The notes beneath the pieces are model-generated. The model did not search any database, was not told the origin of the DNA, and saw nothing but the letters and a program-made list of their open reading frames with translations. DNA of 64,000 nt, from IMG/VR virus record IMGVR_UViG_3300047472_000155, positions 64,001-128,000 of that record. One strand, given 5' to 3'. This DNA is from a virus. Each line of letters opens with the position of its first letter. The stretch's first letter is position 1. Positions 23,998 to 63,528 of this stretch are shown here, one piece after another. The position numbers and the translations under genes were made by a program.

Positions 23998-24030
23998 AAA
24001 AACAAAACAATAATATTGGAGGAATTAACC

Positions 24031-24825
24031 ATGAAACTTAACAAAATACATGTGATTATTGCAAGTATTTTATTCTTCATCATTGGATATTTTACATCAT
24101 CTTCGGTGATTGAAATTGTTTCTGCCGTTTCCGGTTTGCTTTGTGTGTGGCTTGCCGCCAAAGAACACATATGGAATTATCCAATTGGATTCGTCAACAT
24201 AGCGGCGTTCATGTATGTGTTTTGGGGAGCTGGACTATATGCCGACTTTACACTACAAATTATCTTTGCGGCATTGAGCGCTTACGGATGGATATATTGG
24301 CTTAAAGGCAAAGGTGAAAAATCGGTTAAGCCAACAAAACGTGTAACGACTTCAGAAATTATTTTATACATTGTGATTGCAATTGTAGGAACATTCTTGT
24401 GGGCAAATGTCAATCTCAGAATTTTTAATGGTGTTGCATTGCCATACTTTGATGCATTCGTTGCTGTGTTAAGTGTAATTGCTCAAGTAATGTTGTCAAG
24501 AAAGCGGCTTGAGAATTGGTATGTATGGATTCTAGTAGATGTGTTATCCGTAGGAATGTATTGGTACAAAGACTTACACCTTGTATCTATCTTATATATC
24601 TTCTTCCTTGTCAATGCGGTATATGGATTGATTGCATGGAAAAAAGAATACAAAAAGTTTCAAGTTGAACAAACGGTAAATAAAATAATCAAAGAGACTC
24701 AAGCAAGTTCAGAAAATATCGGAAATGCTATGAAAACTCCGTGGCTTAAGTTTGTAGAAGAACATCAAAGAGCTTACTATACTACAGATGATCCAGAAAA
24801 TCCATTCAATAAAGGGGATAAGTGA
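24031..24825 (+). CDS. pnuC: nicotinamide riboside transporter PnuC
   Basis: multi-TM; E.....G..CVWL.AKE.IWNYP.G, LYAD..LQ, YGW..W, LP..DAF, AQ...SRK.LENW..WI.VD. Confidence 0.93.
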   Translation: MKLNKIHVIIASILFFIIGYFTSSSVIEIVSAVSGLLCVWLAAKEHIWNYPIGFVNIAAFMYVFWGAGLYADFTLQIIFAALSAYGWIYWLKGKGEKSVKPTKRVTTSEIILYIVIAIVGTFLWANVNLRIFNGVALPYFDAFVAVLSVIAQVMLSRKRLENWYVWILVDVLSVGMYWYKDLHLVSILYIFFLVNAVYGLIAWKKEYKKFQVEQTVNKIIKETQASSENIGNAMKTPWLKFVEEHQRAYYTTDDPENPFNKGDK

Positions 24826-25063
24826 TAATGGGAGAAATTATATTCAAAACTTATTCCCTTGGAGAAATCGTTGACAACTTAGGTGAAAATGAAATTGCTA
24901 TAAAAATTGACGGAACTAGTGTGGGGGATAGAATTTATAAGAACAATGAGACATGTCAGCTTAGACGAGTGAATATAGATTCTTGTATGGATATTCCATT
25001 GATGATTAATACTATTGAAGTTTTGGAAAAAAGTGTTTGGATCATTTTGAAGGAGGAATCCTA

Positions 25064-26104
25064 ATGAAGACAGGTTTAATTCTAGGCAAATTCATGCCTT
25101 TACATCTAGGGCATGAATACCTTATCAATACAGGACTAACAGCATGTGATGTGCTTCATGTTGTTGTATGTAGCCTATCAAGTGAACCGATTGATGGAAA
25201 TTTGCGTTACGAGTGGGTTAAACATAGATTTTGTCAAGAAATTTTGAAGGGACGCATTGTTGTTCATCACCTCAAAGAAGATTGGATGCCACAAGAACCA
25301 AGTGATTGCATCTCTGAGGAAGCTTTCTTTGGATGTTGGGCGGGTGTAATGGAGTCTTTGTGTAATACTAAGTTTGACGTTATGTTCGCATCAGAAATGT
25401 ATATACATCGTATGTCAAATCAACTTAATTGCACTCCTATTCTTGTTGACCTTGAGCGTAAGAATGTTCCTATTAGTGGAACAATGGTTCGTGACAATCC
25501 AATTGGAAATTGGAAGTTTATTAACAGGAATGTAAAAAAGTATTTTGCAAAGCGTGTACTCATTATTGGCGGTGAAAGCACCGGAAAGTCAATTATGACT
25601 CAAATGCTTGACGAATATTACGAAGACAAAGGTTATCTTACTTATGGTTCTCAAGAATATGCTAGAGATTATATTGACCAAGTTTATAATGGTAATATGG
25701 AAAAGTTAACATTTGACGACATCACACATTTTGGTCAATCACAAATGAGAGATGTTGATAGCGCTATACAAAGTGGATTCCAAATTGTATTTTCTGACAC
25801 GGACGCTATTGTGTCTAAGGTATTTCAACAAACATACTACGGAAAGACATCTCCTGAACTTGATGAAGTCATTGACAAAGAACAATGGGATTTGGTTCTA
25901 TTCCTTGAAAACGATGTACCATGGGTTGATGATGGTCAACGTAATCTTGGAGAGAAGAAGCAAAGAGAATTATTCCAACATAAACTCTACGTTGAAGTAT
26001 ATAACAAAAAGAAAATGCGTAATATCGTGTTTATTAACGGAGATTGGGAACAACGATTTGAAAAGGCAAAAAAATCTGTTGACAAGTTGCTTCAACTAAT
26101 GTAA
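25064..26104 (+). CDS. nadR: NadR-type NMN adenylyltransferase / ribosylnicotinamide kinase (no HTH)
   Basis: GKFMPLHLGH (HxGH), ISGT.VR, P-loop GGESTGKS, EYAR, DTD, PWVDDGQR. Confidence 0.93.
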   Translation: MKTGLILGKFMPLHLGHEYLINTGLTACDVLHVVVCSLSSEPIDGNLRYEWVKHRFCQEILKGRIVVHHLKEDWMPQEPSDCISEEAFFGCWAGVMESLCNTKFDVMFASEMYIHRMSNQLNCTPILVDLERKNVPISGTMVRDNPIGNWKFINRNVKKYFAKRVLIIGGESTGKSIMTQMLDEYYEDKGYLTYGSQEYARDYIDQVYNGNMEKLTFDDITHFGQSQMRDVDSAIQSGFQIVFSDTDAIVSKVFQQTYYGKTSPELDEVIDKEQWDLVLFLENDVPWVDDGQRNLGEKKQRELFQHKLYVEVYNKKKMRNIVFINGDWEQRFEKAKKSVDKLLQLM

Positions 26105-27071: not shown

Positions 27072-28205
27072 ATGAAAGTGTTAAATTTTACAAAAGAAGA
27101 TTACATGGAATATGTTGATCAAGGATATATCTCGCGTAAAGAACATCCAGAAGACTCAAATGTAGTTATTTTAAATTATACAGAAAAAACCGTATTTGAA
27201 CGCAAATGGAATGACATAACACTTCAATGCAGAGGTTTGATCTTGAATGAAGCGACATGTGAAGTGTTGGCAAGACCTTTCCCTAAGTTTTTTAATTATG
27301 GTGAAGCGAATGGTCTTAACATTTCTATTCCACAAACACAGCCAGAGATTACCATTAAGCATGACGGATCATTGGGAATCATGTATCGTCTACATGGTAA
27401 AATTCGATGGGCGACAAGGGGTAGTTTTGTGTCAGAACAGGCTAATATTGCACAAAGAATTTGGGATAAAGAATACGCCCAATATGAGCATTTAATTCCG
27501 AATTCCTTAACATTGTTGGCAGAAATAATTCACCCATTGACAAGAGTGGTTGTTAATTACAATGGACTTGAAGATTTGATTTTGATTGGCATTATTAATA
27601 GATTTGATGGATCAGATTACAATCATCTTACTATTACCAATTTTAGAAATCAATATGTTCCAATGCCAGTAACAGAAAAGATAGTGGGTAACGTTGATAA
27701 TATTATAGAAATCGCAAAAACCCTTGATCACAATGAAGAGGGGTTTGTATTGTGTTGGGACAATCCCAATTTTACATTTGACGAACAACAACCGTATCGC
27801 CTTAAGGTCAAGGGACAACAATACCTTGAAGTTCACCGTATCATTCATGGTATGAGCTTGAAGCAAAAAGTTGAGTCGTGGGCTAATGGCAACTTGAATG
27901 AATATATTGCATCATTACCAGAAGAGTTTCGTCCAGAGATCGAAGAAACTGCTTCCGAATGTGAGAATATTTATAGTTATATTATGATAAATGTAGCAAA
28001 AAAGTATCAAATAGCAGAAAAACGTGGACGCAAGAATTATGCTCTATGGATGCAAAAGAATGCTCCTAGCTATCTTCATGGTTTTTTATGGCTCAAATAT
28101 GATAATGAAATTGAACAAATGCAAGATAAAATTAAACAATATATTGTCAAAAATTATAGAGAATTGATTGGAGGAAATAACAGTGCAAGTGAGCAAATTG
28201 AATAA
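27072..28205 (+). CDS. RNA ligase 1 (T4 Rnl1-like)
   Basis: LNYT, W...T..CRGLI, RPFPKFFN, motif I KHDGSLG, ATRGSF.S.QA, EII, EGFV, KVK. Confidence 0.92.
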   Translation: MKVLNFTKEDYMEYVDQGYISRKEHPEDSNVVILNYTEKTVFERKWNDITLQCRGLILNEATCEVLARPFPKFFNYGEANGLNISIPQTQPEITIKHDGSLGIMYRLHGKIRWATRGSFVSEQANIAQRIWDKEYAQYEHLIPNSLTLLAEIIHPLTRVVVNYNGLEDLILIGIINRFDGSDYNHLTITNFRNQYVPMPVTEKIVGNVDNIIEIAKTLDHNEEGFVLCWDNPNFTFDEQQPYRLKVKGQQYLEVHRIIHGMSLKQKVESWANGNLNEYIASLPEEFRPEIEETASECENIYSYIMINVAKKYQIAEKRGRKNYALWMQKNAPSYLHGFLWLKYDNEIEQMQDKIKQYIVKNYRELIGGNNSASEQIE

Positions 28206-29229
28206 ACTTATAATCTTGGTTGGTATTCCTGGAAGTGGCAAAAGTACTAAGGCAAAAGAGATTTTGGATGAAAATCAAAATACAGTTTTAATTTCCTCAG
28301 ATGCAATTAGAGAAGAGTTGGGTGATGTAAATGATCAATCCAAGAACGATAAAGTTTTTGAGTTGTATTATAAACGTGCCGAAGAATCTCTTAAAGAAGG
28401 TAAAGATGTCATTCTTGATGCAACTAACACAACCGTAAAGTCAAGACGTATTGCAGTTGAACGATTGAAGAAACATGTAACAACCATTGAAGCTCATTAC
28501 TTCAATGTAGATTATTGGACTTCTTGGGGAAGAAATTGTAAAAGAGATAGATTCGTCCCAGAACATGTTATCGAAAGAATGTATAAATCTCTTCAAATTC
28601 CCACTTATGCAGAGGGATTTGATCAAATTGTATTTCACAATGAAAAAGAAAAAATGGATGAAAACAAGATAGTAACCTATAGTCGTAGTGGAATGATTTT
28701 CATATCTAGTTTGAAGGAACTTGAGGATTTCATTTCTTTGAATCAAAAATATGAGCGCATTATGGGAGAGCAGAAATATTTTGCACATGACTTACATGAT
28801 ATTTGGGAACTTCCACAAGATAATTCATTTCATTCTTTCAGCGTAAGTAGACATACTTATCATGTATGGAAATATATTCTTGAAAATTACAATGGGGAAG
28901 ATAAGATTGCCATGCTGTGGTCAGGATTGTTTCATGATGTTGGTAAAGCATTTTGCAAAAACTTCAAAAAATATGAAGATGGAACCGTATCACGATACGC
29001 TAACTTCATTGGACATGAGAATGTTTCTGCGCAACTTGCAGCAACACGTTTAAGTCAATACTATGATACAGAATTTGTGTTGAAGGTAGTTGAGATTATT
29101 CAATATCATATGCGTTTGATGCAAGTAGGGGATAGTGAAAAATCCATTAACAAATTGCAAAAATTTGTTGGCGTTGAGTTGATGAATAAACTTGAATTTT
29201 TCTATGAAGCAGATACGAGTGCAAAATAA
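28183..29229 (+). CDS. polynucleotide 5'-kinase fused to an HD phosphoesterase (Pnk-HD)
   Basis: GIPGSGKST, SSDAIR, DATN, R.R.VP..VI; C-terminal H...HDVGK...GHE..SA...HM...EAD. Confidence 0.9.
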   Translation: MQVSKLNKLIILVGIPGSGKSTKAKEILDENQNTVLISSDAIREELGDVNDQSKNDKVFELYYKRAEESLKEGKDVILDATNTTVKSRRIAVERLKKHVTTIEAHYFNVDYWTSWGRNCKRDRFVPEHVIERMYKSLQIPTYAEGFDQIVFHNEKEKMDENKIVTYSRSGMIFISSLKELEDFISLNQKYERIMGEQKYFAHDLHDIWELPQDNSFHSFSVSRHTYHVWKYILENYNGEDKIAMLWSGLFHDVGKAFCKNFKKYEDGTVSRYANFIGHENVSAQLAATRLSQYYDTEFVLKVVEIIQYHMRLMQVGDSEKSINKLQKFVGVELMNKLEFFYEADTSAK

Positions 29230-29247
29230 AAGGGAGATGAATATATA

Positions 29248-30135
29248 ATGTTCAAAAATATTAAGAGATATGATAGTTCAGAAGGCGTAGTTTGGAAGTA
29301 TGTCTTTGAAAAAGAAGATGCCGTAACAGAAGCAGTTCTTTATAAGTACAATACTTTTGAAGATAGAACAGTGGTATGTTGTTCTGTCCAGTCAGGATGT
29401 CCTATCGGATGTACATTTTGTGGTACTGGAAATAAGTTTATTAGAAATTTAACTCCAGATGAAATTGTAGCTCAAGTAACACATGTATTTAGTGATATGG
29501 ATATCAAGGACATAAATAGTAGATGTAAAAAATTGCAAATTATGTTCATGAGCATGGGTGAACCTATGACAAATTGGAAGAATGTCGAAGAAGCAATTTC
29601 ACAATTAAATAACCTTTATCCTAACGCTCAATTACTTATCTCTACTATCGGAGTAGATAATGATGCAATTTTCTCTAAAATAATTCAAACGTCAAAAAGA
29701 ATATCAAAAGTTGGACTTCAATTCTCTATTCATCAAGCTTTTGATACTGATAGAGATAATCTCATTCCATTTAAAAATAAAATGTCACTTAGAAAAATAA
29801 GAGACGCAGGAACAATTTGGAGCCAAGAAACAGGACGAAAAGTGTATTTAAATTATTGTGTTGATGGAAAGAATGTTTCCAAAGAACACTTAGACAGATT
29901 AAAAGACTTGTTCAGTCCTACAACTTTTAATTTTACATTTAGCGTTGTGTGTAGCGCAGATGAAACAATGAAAGATTCTGGATATAGAAATCATGAAAAG
30001 ATTAAAGAAGTAATGAGTTCATTTTTAGAGGATGGATACAATGTAAGAATGTTTGATCCTGCGGGACAAGATGATATTGGTGGTGGATGTGGTCAGTTGT
30101 GGTATGTTCAACAATGGATGAATGAATATAAATAA
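29248..30135 (+). CDS. RlmN/Cfr-family radical SAM RNA methyltransferase
   Basis: CCSVQSGCPIGCTFCGTG, RNL...EIV.Q, MSMGEP, ISTIG, LQFSIH, R..LIP, DIGGGCGQL. Confidence 0.9.
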   Translation: MFKNIKRYDSSEGVVWKYVFEKEDAVTEAVLYKYNTFEDRTVVCCSVQSGCPIGCTFCGTGNKFIRNLTPDEIVAQVTHVFSDMDIKDINSRCKKLQIMFMSMGEPMTNWKNVEEAISQLNNLYPNAQLLISTIGVDNDAIFSKIIQTSKRISKVGLQFSIHQAFDTDRDNLIPFKNKMSLRKIRDAGTIWSQETGRKVYLNYCVDGKNVSKEHLDRLKDLFSPTTFNFTFSVVCSADETMKDSGYRNHEKIKEVMSSFLEDGYNVRMFDPAGQDDIGGGCGQLWYVQQWMNEYK

Positions 30136-30154
30136 AAAAGGAGATGAAATAAAT

Positions 30155-31063
30155 ATGACACAGAAAAAGTTTACAGATGTGGTACGCATGGGTCATAAGA
30201 CAACACAAGGAGTATTTCATATTGATGATCCAATTACGATAACAGAGAAGATTGATGGTGCAAACGCAAGCTTTAAACGTGAAGGCGACAAGGTTCTTGC
30301 ATTCTCTCGTAACAATCATCTTGATGAATCAAGTGATCTTGGCGGATTCTATCAATGGGTTCAAGCTAATATTGACCCTACAAAGCTTTTGGAAGGAGTC
30401 ATTATGTTTGGAGAGTGGCTTAATCCTCACAAGGTTAAATATGCACCTGAACACACTAAAACATTCATCTTGTTTGCTATCTTCAATGAGTTTACACAAG
30501 AATATGTTAGTTTTTCTATGGTTAAAGATGAGGCAAGACGATTGAATCTCAAGCTTGTCCCTGTGTTTTATGAAGGTGTATATCAATCTTATGAACATCT
30601 TCAATCATTTGTAGGAAAAACTGAACTTGGTGGGACTCTTGGCGGCGAAACCACAGGTGAAGGAATTGTAGTAGTTAACTATGACTATAAAGATAGATAT
30701 GGTGATCAAGTTTTCACAAAGATGGTTGTTGATAAATTTGCTGAGGTTCAACATCAAAAATCTCCACGCGATCCCAATACCCCTGAAACTATTGAGGCTC
30801 TTTGGGTAAAAGATAATATGACAAAAGCCCGTATAGAAAAACTCTTGCTTAAATTAGTAGATGAAGGTATAATTGAAGAAGAGTTTGGCATTGAAGACAT
30901 GGGAACTATTCTTAAGAATATCAATCGGCGCTTGATTGATGATATGATTAAGGAAGAGGTTGACTATTTACCAGAAGGATATGAACTCAAAGAAATTGGT
31001 CGCGCTGTTGCTGGCAAATCTCCTAATATTATTAAGGAGATTATTAAAGAAAGACAAATGTAA
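30155..31063 (+). CDS. RNA ligase 2 family protein
   Basis: TEKIDGANAS, FSRN, FGEW, F..F.I, VPVFY.G, GEGIVV, K.V...F.E. Confidence 0.88.
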   Translation: MTQKKFTDVVRMGHKTTQGVFHIDDPITITEKIDGANASFKREGDKVLAFSRNNHLDESSDLGGFYQWVQANIDPTKLLEGVIMFGEWLNPHKVKYAPEHTKTFILFAIFNEFTQEYVSFSMVKDEARRLNLKLVPVFYEGVYQSYEHLQSFVGKTELGGTLGGETTGEGIVVVNYDYKDRYGDQVFTKMVVDKFAEVQHQKSPRDPNTPETIEALWVKDNMTKARIEKLLLKLVDEGIIEEEFGIEDMGTILKNINRRLIDDMIKEEVDYLPEGYELKEIGRAVAGKSPNIIKEIIKERQM

Positions 31064-31326
31064 TATAAAATGATTGGAGGAATTTATAATGGCAAAAGAA
31101 GTCGGAATTGGATTGACAACAAAGACAGTTTTGCATTTCTTAAACATACAAGACGATAGAGATGTGACTTTGATTACAAATGAGGTTAGTGTCAAAGATG
31201 TTTTGAAGATCATGATAGAAAATGACTTGCCTGTAAATTGTCTTATTAATAAGAAAATTAGACAGGTTAGAGATGGAATTTTTACAATAACAGCAATAAC
31301 CTTTGAATAAAATAGGAGGAATGAAT

Positions 31327-32559
31327 ATGATTCATATTAATATCCCCAAAAAAGTCAATCACATTATGGATGTAATTGGCGACTATAGTCATTCAGTGTA
31401 TGTCGTAGGAGGATGCATAAGAGATTCAATCTTAGGCATCACTCCTAAAGATTGGGACATTGCCACAAGTATGCGTCCAGAAATCGTAATAGCGGCTTTC
31501 AATAACCTTGGATATACCGTTGTCCCTACCGGATTGAAGCATGGAACAGTGACAATCGTAATTGATGGAGAACATTTTGAGGTTACAACATATCGCAAAG
31601 ATGGAGTATACTCAGATGGTCGAAGACCAGATGATGTTGTGTTTACACATGACATTAACGAGGACTTGTCACGAAGAGACTTTACTATTAATGCTATGGC
31701 ATACAATGAAGATGGATTAATTGATCCATTCAATGGCTACCATGATCTTCAAGCTAAATTCATTAGAGCGGTTGGTAATCCATCAGAAAGATTCAAGGAA
31801 GATGGGTTACGTATGTTACGTGCAATTCGTTTTTCGTCAACACTTGGATTTCATATTGCTCCTAGCACATATCGTGCTATTTGCGAAAAATATCGTTTAC
31901 TAAAGGATATTTCTGTTGAGCGTAAACGCGAAGAATTATATAAAATCTTGCTTTCCGACAATGCTCATTATGGAATTAGACATCTCATTAACACAGGATT
32001 AATGGATTATATCATTCATGAAATTAGTGATATGACTTTTCCTAAATTGGATGAGATTCCACAATATTATGGCTTGCGTTTAGCTTATTTGTTACTTGAT
32101 TTCCATGAAGATAAGGTAAGAGAGATTTTGAATAAATTGAAAGTTGACAATGAAACAAAACGTTTAGTGATAAATGGAATCAATGCTTATGATCAAATTG
32201 ACGATAAGCTAAAATTAACAAGATCAGATATGAAGATGATTATTCGCGTTTATGGATCACACGAATTGTGGGGTGCGTTATTGATTGCCAAAACAATACA
32301 TGAAAGTAAACATGGTAGATATAATGAAATGATGCGTCAATTTCTTAATATCATGGAAAACAATAAGAATGGGAAAGAACCTATTTGGATTAAGGATTTA
32401 GATGTCAAAGGCAATGACTTGATTGATCTTGGCTTTGAAGGTAAGCAAATAGGAGAAATGCTAAATCGTATTCTTGATTTTGTGACAATTCATCCTATAG
32501 AAAACGATAAAAGTAAATTAGTTCAACAAATTGAAGGAGGATATTTTAATTATGTATAA
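31327..32559 (+). CDS. cca: CCA-adding tRNA nucleotidyltransferase
   Basis: VGGCIRD, DWDIAT, G.KHGTV, EVTTYR.DG.Y.D.RRP, EDL.RRDFTINAMA, RF.ED.LRMLRAIRF. Confidence 0.93.
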   Translation: MIHINIPKKVNHIMDVIGDYSHSVYVVGGCIRDSILGITPKDWDIATSMRPEIVIAAFNNLGYTVVPTGLKHGTVTIVIDGEHFEVTTYRKDGVYSDGRRPDDVVFTHDINEDLSRRDFTINAMAYNEDGLIDPFNGYHDLQAKFIRAVGNPSERFKEDGLRMLRAIRFSSTLGFHIAPSTYRAICEKYRLLKDISVERKREELYKILLSDNAHYGIRHLINTGLMDYIIHEISDMTFPKLDEIPQYYGLRLAYLLLDFHEDKVREILNKLKVDNETKRLVINGINAYDQIDDKLKLTRSDMKMIIRVYGSHELWGALLIAKTIHESKHGRYNEMMRQFLNIMENNKNGKEPIWIKDLDVKGNDLIDLGFEGKQIGEMLNRILDFVTIHPIENDKSKLVQQIEGGYFNYV

Positions 32560-33215
32560 GTTTCTTGGTGTACTATTGATTATTGTTGGGGTTTTGGCAT
32601 TCTTATATCTTGGAATTGGACTTGGAATCATCGGTTTTGTTCACATCTTTACAGGAGTAGGATCATTGTTTTGGAACATTTGTCTTATCGCTTTCCGTGG
32701 AGTAATTGCATTGATTGTTGGAGGATTAGCGGTGTTTGGTGGATGTTACTTGTGGGCAATAGGTGAAAAATGATATTTATAATTATGATTTCGATTATGG
32801 CGGCTGTGTGTAATGCAATTAGAGATACAAGTCATTTGCCTGAGGGGAAAGTATTTTTACCAATAATGTTACATGAATTCATTTCTATTGTTGTAATAAT
32901 TCTTGCTCTTATTGTGGGCAATTGGATCAAGTGTTTATAAGTGTAAGATAAAATAAATTCTCTTGACTTTATCCGGTCAAGAGAATATAATACATATATA
33001 AGATCAAACAAGGGAGATAAAGGAGATAAGACTATGGCATTTTACGGCAAGGTTATTGATGGCAAGCCAAGCATTGTTGTAGCAAACGGAATCAGCAAAG
33101 GCAATCACATGTCTCTGGAATGGTTTATTAAAATCAAGCAAGGGTTGAAAGAGAGAATGACGAATGAAAGATAAAATAAAATCTGATTACAAATAAAAAA
33201 TGGAGTTGATTAAAA

Positions 33216-33680
33216 ATGAGTACCCATGAAAGAGTAATGGAGTTCATCAATCTTATCAAAGGTCACAAAAATGCAAAAGAGTGTTATGATGCTCATCGAA
33301 TACTGAATAAAATATATCGAAATGGAAATTGCTACATGTTTGCTAAAGCGTTACAATTCGTATTTCCTCAAGCTGTGCTTTATAATCAATACGAATTTGG
33401 ATATCATATAGTTGCATGTTGCAATGGAGTCTTTTATGATATCACAGGAATGCTCAAAGACCAAGATTTGATCAACTATTCAATTTTGACGGAAACTCAA
33501 GAAGAGTGGGCAAGAACATGGTGTTATTCAGAATATCATGATCGTGCTTATGGTCTTCATGACCATGAACACAATAGAATTGATTCTTTAAAAGGTTTAA
33601 AGCTTAAACCTTCAAATGATGGATGGGATGTTGATTCAAAAGAGGTAAGAGAAGAAGTAAAGGAAATTGAATACACATGA
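33216..33680 (+). CDS. hypothetical protein with a possible Cys-His-Asp (transglutaminase/papain-like) triad
   Basis: GNCYMFA...HIV......YDITG. Confidence 0.5.
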   Translation: MSTHERVMEFINLIKGHKNAKECYDAHRILNKIYRNGNCYMFAKALQFVFPQAVLYNQYEFGYHIVACCNGVFYDITGMLKDQDLINYSILTETQEEWARTWCYSEYHDRAYGLHDHEHNRIDSLKGLKLKPSNDGWDVDSKEVREEVKEIEYT

Positions 33681-34913
33681 CGGAGTTAATGCGTCATAGT
33701 GGAAATTTTATTGAGAAACGTTGCGAGAAGTGTGGTAGTCATATTATTCAAAATCTTTGGGGTCAAAGATGGTGTATGAGCATTCGTAAATGTGGATGGT
33801 TTGATTCTACTATAACGAATGATTTACCTCTTCCACAAGTCGAAGATAAAACGAAAAAAGTTGTTAAACCTCCAAAAAAAGGAAGACCAAAAGGAACTGT
33901 TAAGAAAGGATAGTGATTATGTGGGCATCACTAAATCAGGCTTGGAGTTCATGTATTTGAAAAGAAAAGAAAATAGTTTATTTGTTCCACGCGAAGCGTT
34001 GGTGAGAGCAGTTGAATTGATTGAAGAAGAATATGAAGATAGTAGTAAATATAACAAATATGTTTACCAAACATTGAAAAGAATCGAAACATGGAAAAAA
34101 TATGATGAAAGAAAATTGATGATTGTGAAAAATTCATCTATTGTAGCCTTCCATTTAACAGGAAGTTACACATTAGTTGAAGGAGAACCAATAAGCATTC
34201 AACAAGAATCAAAAAACTTTTATTTTGGAATGGGATACTACTCTAGCTTTATGGATGTATTACATCTTAAAGAGTCATTGCGTGAACCAACAGAAGAAGA
34301 AATTAAAAAATATAGTTAATAGAAAGAGGCGATACAAATGTCGGTGGCATATCTTGACATGACAATGCATCAATTATCCAATATTCTTGCTAACGTATCT
34401 CAAAAACCAAGCGAACGTGGATGCAATGACGCATTGGATAGTATTAGACGTATGCTTGAAGAGTATCAACGTGCAGGTGGCAAAGTGAATCTTACAGATT
34501 ATCGTGAAACTAGAAGGGTGTGGTAATATGAACGATAGAGAGATTTTTAGTAAGATTCGTGCATGGGAACTACGTGCGGGAGAGTCGTTTGTTGATTATT
34601 GGGGTTCAAACTTAAATACACCTAATTTCATGTTTTGGTGTGTTGGCAAGGGTATATTGACACAAGCCCAATTTAATGTATGGGAACGTGACTATACATC
34701 AGAAGGAATATATGCTGGACTAACTGCTAATGACCCCAATTATTTTATTGACGGTGACACTACCGAAGGATTGCCATATGCTATCGGAGACATGGACAAT
34801 GAACAATTCTATGGATTAATCGTATTATCTCAATTTATTGCAGATAGCATGATCTATCAAAAGAGGTTGATCGACTTCTTGAATGACGAAGAGGATGATG
34901 AATAATTTATAAA

Positions 34914-35279
34914 TTGATTATTGCTGGAGGTAGAGATTTCGAAGACTTTGATCTCCTTGAGAAAGAAGTAAAACTTTTTCTTAAAGGTAAAAGACCAAGT
35001 GAAATAGAGATTGTTAGTGGGGCGGCAGATGGTGCGGATACGTTGGGAGAAGATTTTGCCAAGAAGTATAAGTGTAAACTTCACAGGAAGAGAGCGAATT
35101 GGACTAAATACGGAAATGCAGCAGGACCAATACGCAACAAAGAAATGGCTATTTACGCGAGTCAAGGCGAAACTAAAGGTGGATGCATTTGCTTTTGGGA
35201 CGGGAAAAGTAAAGGTACTAAAAACATGATTGGTCTTGCTAAAAAATACGGATTAGAATTAAAAGTGATTATGTATTGA
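34914..35279 (+). CDS. SLOG-superfamily DUF2493 (YspA/cpYpsA-related) protein
   Basis: IIAGGRDF, IVSG.A.GAD.LGE, ANW.KYG.AAGPIRN.EM, FWDG.SKGTK.MI. Confidence 0.9.
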   Translation: MIIAGGRDFEDFDLLEKEVKLFLKGKRPSEIEIVSGAADGADTLGEDFAKKYKCKLHRKRANWTKYGNAAGPIRNKEMAIYASQGETKGGCICFWDGKSKGTKNMIGLAKKYGLELKVIMY

Positions 35280-35293
35280 AAGGATGATTATTA

Positions 35294-36022
35294 ATGGCTA
35301 TCATTTTTATTGATGATGAAATTCGTGGACAATTAGCTAATTCCATTAGACTTACAAGAGACTTGTATAGTAAACCAAGTAATATCCTGTTGGCTCACCC
35401 TAATGGAATTGATTATATCGTATTGAAGAATAGGCATTATTATAATCACCAAAAACAAGTTCGTCCATCGGATATTAATGAATATACTAAGTTAAATGTA
35501 GATGTTGTTAGATATACTTTTATTCGTCTAGGATTTATTTTAGGGGCAAAAGAGTTAAATTTAAACGGCATGAATTTGCTGATTGATGAGGATTTTTTGA
35601 ATCCTAATGGAAAGAAAATTTTAAAGGAGATGATTAGCGTGAGTGAGAATAATTTTGAAATTGGAGATAAAGTAGTGCCAATTGGAGATAGTATATATAT
35701 TTCATTGGAAGAAGCTGTTGCTTGGGAAGAAGCAAATGAAATCAATCAACCGTTCCTTTATGTTGTTGGATTTAGTAAAGAAAAAGGAAAAAAATCGGTT
35801 AATGTAACTGCATATTTAAATGGTGATGGACATCGGAGTTACTTTGAAAAAGAAAATTTAAAGCATTATGAAGAACCAAAAACAGGAGTCAAGGAATTGG
35901 AGGAAGTAGAAAAAGAAACTCATGATGATCCTCTTGAATGCACAATTGAGGAATTAAGTATTCTTATTAAAACAGGAATTCTTCAACCCCAAGATATTGT
36001 ATTGGTCAAACGTATAAAATAG
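35294..36022 (+). CDS. protein with a C-terminal paralog family B domain
   Basis: FEIGDKVVP....W......Q.FLYV....F..E.L..Y.E...I.EL..LI..GI....D. Confidence 0.7.
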   Translation: MAIIFIDDEIRGQLANSIRLTRDLYSKPSNILLAHPNGIDYIVLKNRHYYNHQKQVRPSDINEYTKLNVDVVRYTFIRLGFILGAKELNLNGMNLLIDEDFLNPNGKKILKEMISVSENNFEIGDKVVPIGDSIYISLEEAVAWEEANEINQPFLYVVGFSKEKGKKSVNVTAYLNGDGHRSYFEKENLKHYEEPKTGVKELEEVEKETHDDPLECTIEELSILIKTGILQPQDIVLVKRIK

Positions 36023-36282
36023 TGAATACAAGTAATAGATAAAACGAAAGGAATGGGAAGCATGAGCATAATGAATATAGCAGATATCGTTTTTGAGCAA
36101 ACACATGACTTTAAATTCATTATTAGAAAAAGCAAAGTAAGTAATGTTGGTCATACGTGTAGTTCAGGTGTGGTAGAAGATGCATTTAATAGTTGGGTAT
36201 ATAGAGTTTTGATAATTGATTCAGAAAACAATATTTTATCAGATAACAAGGTGGAACGAAAAGGAATTGCAAAAATACTGGA

Positions 36283-36306
36283 TAGATAAAACCAAACTTT
36301 TATCTA
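36283..36306. repeat. palindromic site 4
   Basis: tagataaaa ccaaac ttttatcta; overlaps the stop of 36053..36289. Confidence 0.9.
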
Positions 36307-36327
36307 TCACTCAAAAAGGAGGATACT

Positions 36328-36651
36328 ATGAGCGAGATTTCATATATGAATATTGAAGAATTCTTCAATGATGGCTATTTGCAAGAAGTCAATAGAAGAT
36401 TCTTTCATCCTCTTGGATTGGCTCTAGAAGTTAATACTCATGAGGACGGAACCAAGACTTTAGGTGGTATTTGGGACTATCGTGAAGACCCAGAAGGAAT
36501 AAGGTTTTCTGATGGTATTACAAAACTTGAGAAGTTTAAAAGTCGTGCAGAGAGATTCGATGAATTATTTCAAAAAAGACTACTTGAGCGCTATAACCTT
36601 CTAGGATATGGAATTCAAGAGCCTACTAATGGAGATGATCAAAATGTATAA
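36328..36651 (+). CDS. conserved phage hypothetical protein
   Basis: GYLQEVNRRFFHPLGLALEV...GGIWDYREDPEG; AGGAGG RBS just after site 4. Confidence 0.75.
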   Translation: MSEISYMNIEEFFNDGYLQEVNRRFFHPLGLALEVNTHEDGTKTLGGIWDYREDPEGIRFSDGITKLEKFKSRAERFDELFQKRLLERYNLLGYGIQEPTNGDDQNV

Positions 36652-36955
36652 AAAAGGTGATAAAGTAAGACCAATAGCAAAGACTGTAGGAATGTCTTGG
36701 GAAAATTGTTGTGCTAAAGCCGAAATGGAAAGACTAAATCAAGATTTCCTTTATATTACCCGCGATTATCTAAACAATAGGTTTGGCTGCAATGTTATGG
36801 ATTGTGATGGTGTTTTGAGCGAATTTGCTTTTAGTGATCTTGAGCCATATGAAGAGTATCCAAATCTCATAAAAATAAACAGAGATGTGTTACTTGAATT
36901 GTTGCAAAAAGACATTTTCAAGGAAGATATTCGGTTTTACGTGTCTAAGCCATAG
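36644..36955 (+). CDS. paralog family B member ending in palindromic site 5
   Basis: MYKKGDKVRP..K..G.......QDFLYIT...F...DL.PY.E; TAG stop = start of the site. Confidence 0.75.
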   Translation: MYKKGDKVRPIAKTVGMSWENCCAKAEMERLNQDFLYITRDYLNNRFGCNVMDCDGVLSEFAFSDLEPYEEYPNLIKINRDVLLELLQKDIFKEDIRFYVSKP

Positions 36956-36976
36956 ATAAAATGTGAATTTTATCTA
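36953..36976. repeat. palindromic site 5
   Basis: tagataaaa tgtgaa ttttatcta. Confidence 0.9.
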
Positions 36977-39236
36977 TGAGTAAAAAATTGGAATGGAGAG
37001 TGACTTACATGTGGTGGTGGATACTTGGTCTTGCCATATTTATTACTATAATATATATCATAATCTCGTTTATTCTAAGCAAAATTTTCAAACAGGATTA
37101 TAATACATCACAAATTGCATCATTTCTGATATCTGTTACTATTATTCCGTTGTTATTTTGTATTGATATGTCAAATCAAAGGTATGAATATTACAACACC
37201 AGAACTCTCTCAGCCATGCAAGATAGTCAATCATATGTTGTTTCTAGATATGATGTTGAATCGGAGCTTAAGTATCTTTACATGTACAAAACCGGAGACG
37301 ATACGTATCGTGCAAGTCAAGCACCATCAAATAGATCAACTATTCACATATCTACAAAAGACTATAAAGTTGAGATTTATAAAGAAAAAAAGAAAATCAA
37401 ATTCTTTAACTTGATTCTTCCAAGTCAGTATGTTGATGCGTATAAATTTGAGTTTTATATTCCGAAAGATGGTCTTATTTCAGAGTTCAAGGTTGATTTA
37501 AAATAAGCAAGGAGATGAATAACAGTGGACATAAATAGCCTTTCGCTAGAAAAGAAGAAAGAGATTTACAATCAATTGCTTATTATATTGGCATCAAGAA
37601 TTATGAGATTAATAATCTTTCTGTGAAAAATGGTAAAGTTGTAAAGTATTCTCGCGGATATGGTCCATATGATGATGAATGGATTGAAGTTTCCGCAAAT
37701 AGACAAGGTAATGCAATTGAGAAGTTTAAGCTTATGGTGGATTTGGATAAAAAAATAGAAGAAGAAGTACATCAAAAATATTTGAATCTAAATGACACAA
37801 TTAATAAGTTGGCATTAAAATATTCAGAAGAAGACTTGAGAATGGACTAAAAGGAGGATTAAAATGGAAATTATACACAAGACAAAAAAAGTACTTAGAC
37901 TTATTGATGAACAAACGCCAGTTTATGTTGTTGACGGAAGGGAGTTTATAGACGAAAAAACAGCATTAACATTTGAAAGAAGAAGTAAAGTTAGATTTGT
38001 TGAGCTTAAAGGAATTTCGCAAATAGGGATAAGTGATCTTACTAACTGCAAAGAAGATATTCACGACTTAGACATAAGAGTTGAAGGAGATGAAGTTTAC
38101 CCTTGCATAATTGGAGTTGAAAAAGATAGAGACTCAGCATATAAAATTGATTTAAGCGATATAGATGAACTTATCAATGATCTTCAAGTTTTTCGAAGTG
38201 AAGTTTATCAATTCATCTTTAAAAAGGGGAGAGATTAACAATGACAACAACTAAGCGTCAAGTAATGTATGACGAATACGGAAATATTACACATATGTCA
38301 CGTGAAGTTGAGGTTAAAACACCTATTCAAGTATTAACTGAATTTTGTATTGGTCTTGCAATTGTAGGTCTTATTGTTGTGTTAGTATAAGACAAGGAGA
38401 GATACTATGTCAACGATTCCAGATAGAGCGCTATGGTTCCTTGAAAGCGAAGTAAAAAGCTTGTTTGTAGGATATTCATGCAAAAGAGTGTCTAGTCATC
38501 TTGAATATGTAGAATGTACATCTAAAATGTTAATGTCATTCAAGTCTTTTTGTGGAGTCAAGTATAAAAAGCAATATGCTACTATGTCTAAAAAAATTTT
38601 ATTTTCAAATACTTTCATTAAGAACTATAAATGGAGAGAATTTATGATCAAGTGTGCAGTTGACGAAAACAAGAAAAAGATTTACTGGCAAGCTGAAAGA
38701 ACTTACTCAGAAATGGAGTGGTCATAATAATGACTGCAGTTGAATTACCACTATTTGATGAAGAGATGCACAAGAAAAGTTTGCTTAAATATTACCTTAA
38801 AGAAATTGAAAAGCTAGGATTTGTTACAAGTATAACGGAAAAAGATAACACTACATTTGCTCTAATTGTTGACCCACTTGATATTGATCTCGATTCGACA
38901 AAAGAGATTCCAGATTATGGAGATTTATTTGAATTAGATGAGTTTATTGACATGTGTGAATCTGGAAGTCTTATTGATTATGATGGTTATGGAGATATTG
39001 TTTATAATAACAAGATTATTCATGAACTTATATCTCCATCTGATGTAGATATTTATAAAAATCAACTTGAAGACTTACAGGAAAAGCTTGGCAAAATACA
39101 GATTATGTGGTATAATAAGTAGTATAAGGAGAGTGAAAGATAAAATCATATTATAGAATTAGGGCGATAAGCCCTATATTTTTTTGACAACCGGGTCTGA
39201 GCCAGTGACATTTGAAAAATAAATGATCATCAGCTA

Positions 39237-62332: not shown

Positions 62333-62394
62333 ATAAATCGTTGACCCCCGAAAAGGGGTCAATAAAACAAAAAACTTCCCTCTAAAGGAGATTA

Positions 62395-63528
62395 ATGAGA
62401 ATGAAAATCGTAAAAACAGGTGAGATTACAAGAATTTTTTCAGATGATCTTCAAACTTTCGATAAGATTCCAGTTGGAAATTATAAAGTTTGCTTTCACC
62501 CAATGATGGGTTTTTACTTGGAAGATGCCGACTCCTTTAAAAACAATGAAAAGCCATATGGAAAGCATCCTTTAAAAATCTCTAAAGTTGTTGCACTATA
62601 CCAAAACATCGAAAGAAGCGCTGGCATTATTTTAAGCGGAAAAAAGGGTATGGGGAAATCTATGTTTGCTAGACTTCTTTCGGAAGAGTTTGCTAGTAAG
62701 CATGATATGCCAACGATTATGGTTACAGAAGCGTTCAAAGGAATCGTTGACTTTATTGAATCAATAAAACAAGAGTGCGTCATTTTGTTTGATGAATTTG
62801 AGAAGGTATTTGACAGTGAACGTGAGAACCAAATGAGAGAGAAGCCTAGTAACAAGGAGTCTCAAGATAGATTGCTAGGTTTGTTCGATGGTCTTTCACA
62901 AACGAAACGCATGTATGTAATAACAGTCAATGAGATCAGAAGAGTTAGCCAATATATGATCAATCGACCTGGACGATTCCATTATCATATTCAATTTAAT
63001 TATCCCTCTGCCGCAGAGATTGAATTGTATCTCAAAGACAAATTGTTGCCTCAGTATCAAAACCAAATAACTCTTGTTCAAAGGTTTGCAAATCGTTTTG
63101 ATCTAAATTATGATTCATTACGTGCAATTGCCTTTGAATTGAATAATGGTTATGGATTCTTGGAAACAATGGAAGACTTGAATATCTCATCTTCCGAGAA
63201 CCAAAGAGTCAAATATAATGTTGAGGTTCACTATAGTAATGGACTCGTTGCGAAAAGCATCGAAGAAGTTGATTTGATGAGTTCTGACTATGCGTTCGGA
63301 GTTTCAGTTTCTGGAGAGTATGCACGTATCACCTTCTCTCCACTTGAAGTTGAAATTCATAACAAAGATTCTTTCGTAGTAAATACGGATGATGTAAAAG
63401 TAGATGTGCGTTATGATAGTGACAATGAAATTCTCAATGATGAAAGTGAAATCATCGTCACCAAACTTGTATTTAACAAACAAACCGTAGGCGCTCAATT
63501 TGGCAAAGAAATGGCGAACTTGTTTTAA
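62395..63528 (+). CDS. AAA+ ATPase
   Basis: GKKGMGKS, ILFDEFEK, LL.LFDG, T.N, NRPGRFHY. Confidence 0.9.
   Translation: MRMKIVKTGEITRIFSDDLQTFDKIPVGNYKVCFHPMMGFYLEDADSFKNNEKPYGKHPLKISKVVALYQNIERSAGIILSGKKGMGKSMFARLLSEEFASKHDMPTIMVTEAFKGIVDFIESIKQECVILFDEFEKVFDSERENQMREKPSNKESQDRLLGLFDGLSQTKRMYVITVNEIRRVSQYMINRPGRFHYHIQFNYPSAAEIELYLKDKLLPQYQNQITLVQRFANRFDLNYDSLRAIAFELNNGYGFLETMEDLNISSSENQRVKYNVEVHYSNGLVAKSIEEVDLMSSDYAFGVSVSGEYARITFSPLEVEIHNKDSFVVNTDDVKVDVRYDSDNEILNDESEIIVTKLVFNKQTVGAQFGKEMANLF

Follow-up and report, generated by a model that had tools for sequence, protein, structure and literature searches.

An RlmN/Cfr-type radical-SAM gene without the docking lobe, carried as putative cargo in a conserved RNA-repair block of a large phage

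To our knowledge, only two activities, those of RlmN and Cfr, have been described for class-A radical S-adenosylmethionine (radical-SAM) methyl synthases, and both enzymes act on RNA by means of an N-terminal docking lobe. In RlmN, C355 carries the methyl group and C118 resolves the covalent intermediate. RlmN acts on A2503 and on tRNA A37 (m2A), and Cfr acts on A2503 (PMC5130265, PMC12887959). Here we describe a gene for a relative of these enzymes in a viral DNA stretch of 64,000 nucleotides (the window), which corresponds to bases 64001-128000 of the complete 166.8-kb viral record IMGVR_UViG_3300047472_000155 (G000). The gene, an open reading frame (ORF) at 29248-30135 on the plus strand, encodes a protein of 295 amino acids (aa), P0001, without internal stops, and lies among RNA-repair genes. 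P0001 belongs to a large, mostly viral clade that lacks the docking lobe, keeps the whole catalytic apparatus and recurs among NAD+-rebuilding, ADP-ribose-processing, RNA-repair and tRNA genes. At this locus, the comparison with sibling phages corrects the view of a five-gene "repair operon" to that of a four-gene conserved block plus variable cargo.

Compared with RlmN (TIGR00048; PDB 3RFA, 5HR6/5HR7, 6FZ6), P0001 has the same core fold, the CxxxCxxC and MGEP motifs and both mechanistic Cys residues, and its R40 matches RlmN R114. Unlike RlmN, it has no PF21016 lobe, shows 22-26% identity, falls in a separate clade with different residues at three substrate-site positions, and is carried on phages and mobile elements as a cassette. 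With Cfr (m8A2503, PhLOPSA resistance; NF000424, TIGR04432; PDB 9P0P) it shares the superfamily and the expected chemistry, and its Y34 matches Cfr Y97, but it lacks the N-terminal lobe and lies outside the Cfr clade. A further comparison is offered by Hen1, a Rossmann-fold 2'-O-methyltransferase paired with Pnkp, which blocks re-cleavage of RNA by removing the 2'-OH nucleophile. The locus resembles Pnkp-Hen1 in that a methyltransferase gene stands beside end-healing and end-sealing enzymes, which brings to mind methylation after repair. It differs in that P0001 would be a radical-SAM base C-methylase, its linkage to repair genes is facultative and the gene is absent from sibling operons; moreover, Pfam and NCBIfam found no Hen1-family domain in P0001, only radical-SAM families. 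The setting of the family also recalls the phage NAD+ reconstitution pathways NARP1, NARP2 and NARP3 (10.1101/2024.02.11.579819; PMC13464706), since NAMPT/Namat-like, PRPP-synthetase/Adps-like and NMNAT-NUDIX genes are its commonest neighbours and a PnuC-NadR pair is present in the window. None of these pathways, however, has been described with a radical-SAM gene as a component, and NARP-type genes are missing from about half of the carrier genomes.

The radical-SAM protein and its clade

A sequence-only reading of this DNA had reported that CxxxCxxC, MGEP and two mechanistic Cys residues are intact in a 295-aa protein apparently without the N-terminal helical domain of cellular RlmN. Alignments agreed with this inventory and placed its elements as follows.

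29248..30135, plus strand: P0001 gene, predicted class-A radical-SAM methyl synthase of the RlmN/Cfr superfamily without the N-terminal domain (family and structure matches)
29377..29379, plus strand: codon of C44, the equivalent of RlmN C118 (alignment with E. coli C118 and Cfr C105)
29398..29421, plus strand: CxxxCxxC (C51, C55, C58), the 4Fe-4S cluster motif (alignments)
29554..29565, plus strand: MGEP, residues 103-106 (alignment A1)
30088..30090, plus strand: codon of C281, the equivalent of RlmN C355, within GGGCGQL (invariant in 68 clade members)

C44, which lies 7 residues ahead of the first cluster Cys, was likewise invariant in the alignment of the 68 clade members, as were C51 and C58 of the cluster motif (C51-x3-C55-x2-C58), and C55 was replaced by Ser in one member. 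In alignment A1, M103 and G104 were invariant, and E105 and P106 were nearly so. One detail of the earlier assignment had to be changed: although a mechanistic Cys is indeed intact in this region, the residue literally preceding SxQxGC, C45, is variable, and the true mechanistic one is the preceding C44. The catalytic inventory of the predicted enzyme is complete.

Pfam matched P0001 only to the generic Radical_SAM domain, and PHROGs returned only families of unknown function. The NCBIfam RlmN model TIGR00048 matched with an E value of 7e-35 and 120.5 bits (cut-off 290) over profile positions 74-342 of 355, and the NCBIfam Cfr models gave 101.5-105.8 bits (cut-offs 468-550). By sequence, the nearest solved structures were Cfr 9p0p (E 8.5e-19, the best PDB match) and RlmN 6fz6/3rf9. 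An AlphaFold (AF2) model built on 24 clade members had a pLDDT of 92.8, and its top Foldseek matches were the RlmN-type structures 6fz6 and 5hr6/5hr7 (TM 0.78-0.81), together with Cfr. Over the RlmN structures as a whole, the matches had E values of 3e-19 to 1e-17 and TM values of 0.76-0.81, with an RlmN-type partial TIM-barrel core. The absence of the helical N-terminal RlmN domain was confirmed: PF21016 had no Pfam match in P0001 and one in the cellular homologue P0111, and residue 1 of P0001 aligned with E. coli RlmN residue ~79. The stop codon of the upstream gene lies only 18 nt before the start.

Among 1.84 billion cluster representatives searched, 74 clusters (50% identity) matched at E < 1e-30, mostly of 280-320 aa; lobe-bearing cellular RlmN appeared in that search only at ~1e-22 to 1e-26. 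IMG/VR contained at least 274 viral relatives of P0001, the best 80 of which were 48-73% identical to it. A phylogenetic comparison with RlmN and Cfr, as the earlier reading had proposed, placed the viral clade on one branch with a long stem (support, given as SH-aLRT only, 97-99), nested among other short lobe-less enzymes, outside Cfr and outside lobe-bearing RlmN; Cfr and Cfr(D) formed their own clade with 100% support. At the substrate-site columns of a Cfr study (PMC12887959), the clade has Y, Y, R, V, Q, D/N, P and A, and the D/N-P-A that replaces RlmN K345/T346/R347 is invariant or nearly so. In the same study, changing Cfr Y97, W101, S103, S151, Q329 or F330 to the RlmN residue impaired resistance (PMC12887959); the clade has Y, R, V, Q, P and A at these positions, and only Y97 is kept. 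The isoelectric points of the proteins did not separate the clade from RlmN.

P0001 was rejected as an RlmN orthologue on the basis of its score of 120.5 bits, far short of the cut-off of 290, the lack of PF21016 and its separate clade, and as Cfr on the basis of its 101.5-105.8 bits against 468-550, its position in the tree and the retention of one of the six substrate-site residues. Because the clade has its own branch and its own fixed substrate-site residues, P0001 is best classed as neither an RlmN orthologue nor Cfr, and as a member of a large, uncharacterised, mostly viral lobe-less clade. Judged from its sequence, the gene lacks every defining feature of the resistance enzyme Cfr and gives no sign of a resistance function. 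Literature searches returned no description of the clade, of a phage RlmN-like enzyme, or of a radical-SAM gene in RNA-repair or NARP papers.

The slot between Pnk-HD and Rnl2

The position of the gene between Pnk-HD and Rnl2 was confirmed by Pfam matches of the flanking genes. It forms part of a tight, co-oriented series, Rnl1-PnkHD-rSAM-Rnl2-x-CCA (rSAM, the radical-SAM gene; x, a small ORF), which is composed as follows.

27072..28205, plus strand: Rnl1-type RNA ligase (PF09511, phrog_562; 78% identity to the L106 protein)
28168..29229, plus strand: Pnk (AAA_33) fused to an HD phosphoesterase, Pnk-HD (Pfam)
29232..30129, plus strand: limits of the exchanged cassette (window 27072-32559 compared with L106 by blastn)
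30155..31063, plus strand: Rnl2-type RNA ligase, PF09414 (longest ORF from 30122; conserved start 30155)
31074-31310: small ORF between the Rnl2-type ligase and the CCA enzyme
31303..32559, plus strand: CCA-adding tRNA nucleotidyltransferase (NF009814, 285.8 bits against a cut-off of 290; Pfam PolyA_pol)

The closest relatives of the block were found through the Pnk-HD protein. The sibling loci L106 (a 170.6-kb contig) and L107 share with the window the order YqeY-PnuC-NadR-...-Rnl1-PnkHD-[slot]-Rnl2-x-x-CCA-...-YunG, and the proteins of the flanking genes are 54-86% identical between the window and the siblings L106/L107, L111 and L110. The slot between Pnk-HD and Rnl2 is occupied by a 247-aa GIY-YIG endonuclease in L106 (8063-8806) and L107 (5410-6153) and by a 103-aa ORF in L111, and in L110 Pnk-HD is followed by small ORFs without a radical-SAM gene. 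At the nucleotide level, blastn homology between the window and L106 extended up to 29231 and resumed at 30130; the break coincides exactly with the limits of the radical-SAM gene. The Bacillus phages Tsamsa and PBC2 have the Rnl1-PnkHD pair without a P0001-type gene, and Pnk-HD matched 38 Bacillus phage records, whereas none of the matches listed for P0001 came from a Bacillus phage. Stenotrophomonas phage ANB28 and Salmonella phage Arash are examples of cultivable phages that have a gene of the family.

These data demonstrate that the slot is hypervariable, a hot spot for cargo exchange, and the five-gene "repair operon" resolves into a four-gene conserved block with variable cargo. The P0001 gene itself is cargo in the slot of this older repair block, because the siblings carry other occupants and DNA homology breaks at the borders of the gene. 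The proposal of the sequence-only reading that the methylase acts as a Hen1-like step of the repair operon is therefore not supported at this locus: the slot varies in the four closest relatives, Tsamsa and PBC2 do without the gene, and the borders are those of a cassette swap.

The gene starts in the block were also compared. The start common to the Rnl2 of the window and that of L106 is ATG 30155, which lies behind a GGAG site and gives a 302-aa protein without overlap. Since this start is conserved, the apparent 14-nt overlap of Rnl2 with the P0001 gene is probably not real. The true start of Pnk-HD is probably later than 28168, at GTG 28183 or TTG 28216. A scan for promoters and terminators performed no better than on shuffled sequences, and co-transcription of the block is therefore proposed from gene spacing only. 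A megablast search of the block against 50,697 phage records returned nothing.

The G+C content of the window is ~33%, and the credible genes of the region examined are almost all on the plus strand. Two further genes, 3 kb upstream of the P0001 gene (24016..26104), are kept in the siblings L106, L107 and L111.

24016-24825, plus strand: PnuC transporter (Pfam)
25037-26104, plus strand: NadR-like enzyme without the helix-turn-helix (HTH) domain (Pfam)

This pair matches NARP3, a two-gene NAD+ rebuilding pathway that was published in 2026 (PMC13464706). A NAPRTase-family gene was also seen at genome positions 142513-143088, 48 kb from the P0001 gene. Outside the window, the same genome (G000) has 22 tRNA genes at 28456-39171 on the minus strand. 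Nearly all of these tRNAs have A37, and the pattern at positions 37/38 did not single out RlmN-type substrates among them.

Neighbours of the family and possible roles

ORFs were called in 93 loci, each spanning 10 kb to either side of a homologue, and dereplication of the loci at 85% identity of the radical-SAM protein left 72 groups. Neighbours were clustered without prior labels, the top clusters were named by Pfam, and the counts by distance were taken from iterated profiles. The commonest neighbour was a NAMPT-family gene, present in 13 of the 72 groups; it immediately adjoined the homologue in 7 and overlapped it in L018. NMNAT-NUDIX and NADAR genes were each found in 7 groups, Macro genes in 6, RtcB and metallophosphoesterase genes in 5 each, and PRPP-synthetase-like, Pnk and Rnl1 genes in 4 each. 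NAD+ genes lay within 2 kb of the homologue in 13 groups and within 5 kb in 17, RNA-repair genes in 11 and 14, and tRNA genes in 7 and 14, respectively. Several homologues are themselves fused to other domains: one is an rSAM::NUDIX fusion followed by NAPRTase and NMNAT genes, fusion to His_Phos_1 also occurs, and a more distant homologue is fused to an HD domain.

The 44 whole records that carry a homologue allowed these distances to be compared with expectation. RtcB was present in 7 records and within 2 kb of the homologue in 3 (0.2 expected), Rnl1 in 10 and within 10 kb in 6 (1.1 expected), and PF09414 in 24 and within 10 kb in 9 (2.7 expected); the PF09414 matches include some DNA-ligase-like proteins, and the presence count for Rnl2 is an upper bound. 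Thus, where both occur, RNA ligases of three unrelated families are nearer to the homologue than chance. NAPRTase-family genes were found in 23 of the records, within 5 kb in 9 (1.4 expected). No match to Rnl1, Rnl2 or RtcB was found in 17 of the 44, and 8 of these 17 have a completeness of 97% or more. A complete phage record without an RNA ligase match, G001, contains the closest homologue (L007, 73% identity), next to genes for a PAPS-reductase-like protein and a DNA ligase.

Repair-linked arrangements of at least six kinds, involving Rnl1, Pnk, RtcB, Rnl2-type ligases and CCA enzymes, are scattered over the tree. They include PnkHD-rSAM-Prs-NAMPT in L009, Pnk-x-Rnl1-rSAM in L088, Metallophos-x-rSAM-x-x-RtcB in L073/L083/L090 and rSAM-x-x-RtcB in the distant L014 clade. 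RtcB lies 1 kb from the homologue in L073/L083/L090, in L051 and in the L014 clade, and L105 has a histidine-phosphatase::rSAM fusion 1.2 kb from an Rnl2-type ligase. In L001, L008 and L011 the homologue is embedded in tRNA clusters. Linkage of homologues to RNA-repair genes, on which the sequence-only reading had depended, was therefore found above chance. As to co-occurrence, the enrichment of ligases near the gene was borne out, but more than a third of the carriers had no ligase match and NAD+ genes were at least as frequent. These results indicate that the link of the family to RNA repair is real and recurrent, but facultative, and no stronger than its link to NAD+ rebuilding.

Taking the locus and the family together, we consider it fairly likely that P0001 is a stand-alone mobile accessory methylase of a kind that settles in counter-defence islands and that here landed between Pnk-HD and Rnl2. 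It would be a class-A radical-SAM methyl synthase with RlmN/Cfr chemistry, in which a methyl group borne by C281 is passed to an sp2 carbon of an adenine ring and C44 resolves the covalent intermediate. The clade would have lost the N-terminal RNA-docking lobe, and its members would move, each as a one-gene cassette, among large phages and other mobile elements. The cassette of this Tsamsa/PBC2-like phage would be co-transcribed with the older repair block, as gene spacing suggests, without being a component of it. Its role would most likely be an independent adenine modification serving host takeover or counter-defence. RNA is the first candidate substrate, either an adenine of the tRNA anticodon loop or an rRNA adenine, because of the family precedent and the tRNA and RNA-repair surroundings. 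Several points weigh against this explanation. The residues predicted to form the RNA site of RlmN/Cfr are replaced in the clade, and together with the lost lobe this may indicate a non-RNA substrate. The NUDIX, histidine-phosphatase and HD fusions and the adjacency of NAMPT-family, NMNAT-NUDIX and PRPP-synthetase-like genes fit nucleotide metabolism equally well. That homologues lie near three unrelated ligase families time and again could mean a genuine functional tie with repair, which the picture of an independent cassette undervalues. The phylogenetic independence of the dereplicated groups is incomplete, and the presumed substrate of all clade members is taken from superfamily precedent.

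The tie to repair was the core of the earlier proposal, in which an anticodon nuclease cuts a tRNA, Pnk-HD and Rnl1/Rnl2 rejoin it, and C-methylation of a nearby adenine, for example A37, then stops recutting in the manner of Hen1. The tight co-oriented block around the P0001 gene speaks for this, as do Pnk-HD directly upstream again in L009, the arrangement in L088, the RtcB genes at 1 kb, the L105 fusion near an Rnl2-type ligase and the closeness of ligases above chance. We nevertheless regard it as very improbable, given that L106, L107, L110, L111, Tsamsa and PBC2 have this operon without the gene, that the cassette-swap borders are clean, that the 17 carriers mentioned above have no Rnl1, Rnl2 or RtcB match, and that NAD+ genes are equally frequent neighbours. 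Base C-methylation, moreover, leaves the 2'-OH nucleophile used by transesterifying ribonucleases in place, so that the mechanism of Hen1 does not carry over directly. The Hen1 analogy thus fails on linkage, since the gene is not a constant partner of repair enzymes, and on chemistry. A looser version, in which methylation protects the target of a nuclease, is possible. Such protection could also be prophylactic and independent of repair, with adenines of phage or host tRNA or of rRNA being methylated early in infection, which would either tune decoding or leave these adenines as poor substrates of host toxins. All characterised superfamily members methylate RNA adenines (PMC5130265, PMC12887959), the phage has its 22 tRNA genes with A37 in nearly all, tRNA genes lie within 5 kb in 14 of the 72 groups and surround the gene in three loci, and a sister clade occurs in a cassette with a TGS-domain protein. 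However, tRNA genes were within 2 kb in only 7 of 27 groups, close to a uniform spread and without concentration beyond regional co-location, the docking lobe and two basic active-site residues are lost, and the 37/38 pattern of the tRNAs is uninformative as to RlmN-type substrates; we therefore rate prophylactic methylation as possible but doubtful.

The loss of the lobe would be accommodated if the clade C-methylated the adenine of a free nucleotide, such as NAD+, ADP-ribose, ATP or a signalling nucleotide, in place of rRNA or tRNA, as an arm of NAD+-centred counter-defence. The rank of the NAMPT family among the neighbours, with its adjacent and overlapping genes, points in this direction, as do the NMNAT-NUDIX, PRPP-synthetase-like, NADAR and Macro neighbours, the rSAM::NUDIX gene with its NAPRTase and NMNAT genes, the His_Phos_1 and HD fusions, and the NARP3-type PnuC-NadR pair 3 kb upstream in the window. 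On the other hand, 21 of the 44 carrier records have no NAPRTase-family match and no such gene is mentioned in the NARP papers. The Rnl1-PnkHD pair of PBC2 has PRPP-synthetase and NAMPT-family genes at a distance of 4-6 kb without a radical-SAM gene; RNA-repair and NAD+ genes thus adjoin each other without it, and the link may amount to co-location in an island. We know of no class-A radical-SAM methylase that acts on a free nucleotide, and our literature searches found none. Action on a free nucleotide is, in our estimation, unlikely, though to be taken seriously; if true, phages would possess a so far unrecognised means of countering NAD+-directed immunity. The identity of the substrate would either add a new form of RNA protection to the phage-host contest or extend this chemistry to nucleotides.

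Inteins, fusions and mobile-element homologues

Three clusters of long homologues (P0155, P0160 and P0161) contained Intein_splicing and LAGLIDADG domains. In L012 (8801-10708; IMGVR_UViG_3300024999_000040), the homologue is a single 646-aa frame that is interrupted at residues 55-58, beside CxxxCxxC, by ~340 additional aa in frame, and this insert is probably also an intein. The inteins and the insert argue for a conserved, selected active site in these homologues.

Close homologues of the P0152 group (62-63% identity) have a fused C-terminal domain of 250 aa that resembles class-I SAM methyltransferases. The domain showed the generic class-I SAM methyltransferase fold and matched no specific family, and it is therefore silent on the substrate. 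A three-gene cassette with such a fusion was found on a mobile element in the bacterial assemblies GCA_949507285.1 and GCA_948630815.1 (L099:5440-10006 and L100), flanked by genes for serine recombinases, Mob_Pre and TnpV. The cassette encodes a 353-aa generic radical-SAM protein, a 545-aa protein in which an RlmN-like core (63% identity to P0001) is fused to the methyltransferase-like domain, and a 619-aa protein without a family match.

The sister clade of short RlmN-like proteins (P0131) occurs in a conserved operon on the metagenome contigs L101-L103, together with genes for a TGS-domain protein, unknown proteins of 383 aa and 361 aa and a 224-aa protein, and a serine recombinase gene adjoins the operon. 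In addition, the 248-kb viral record of L040 (G011) has a second, divergent radical-SAM copy (E 5.5e-36) at 62361-63200 on the minus strand, 74 kb from the first.

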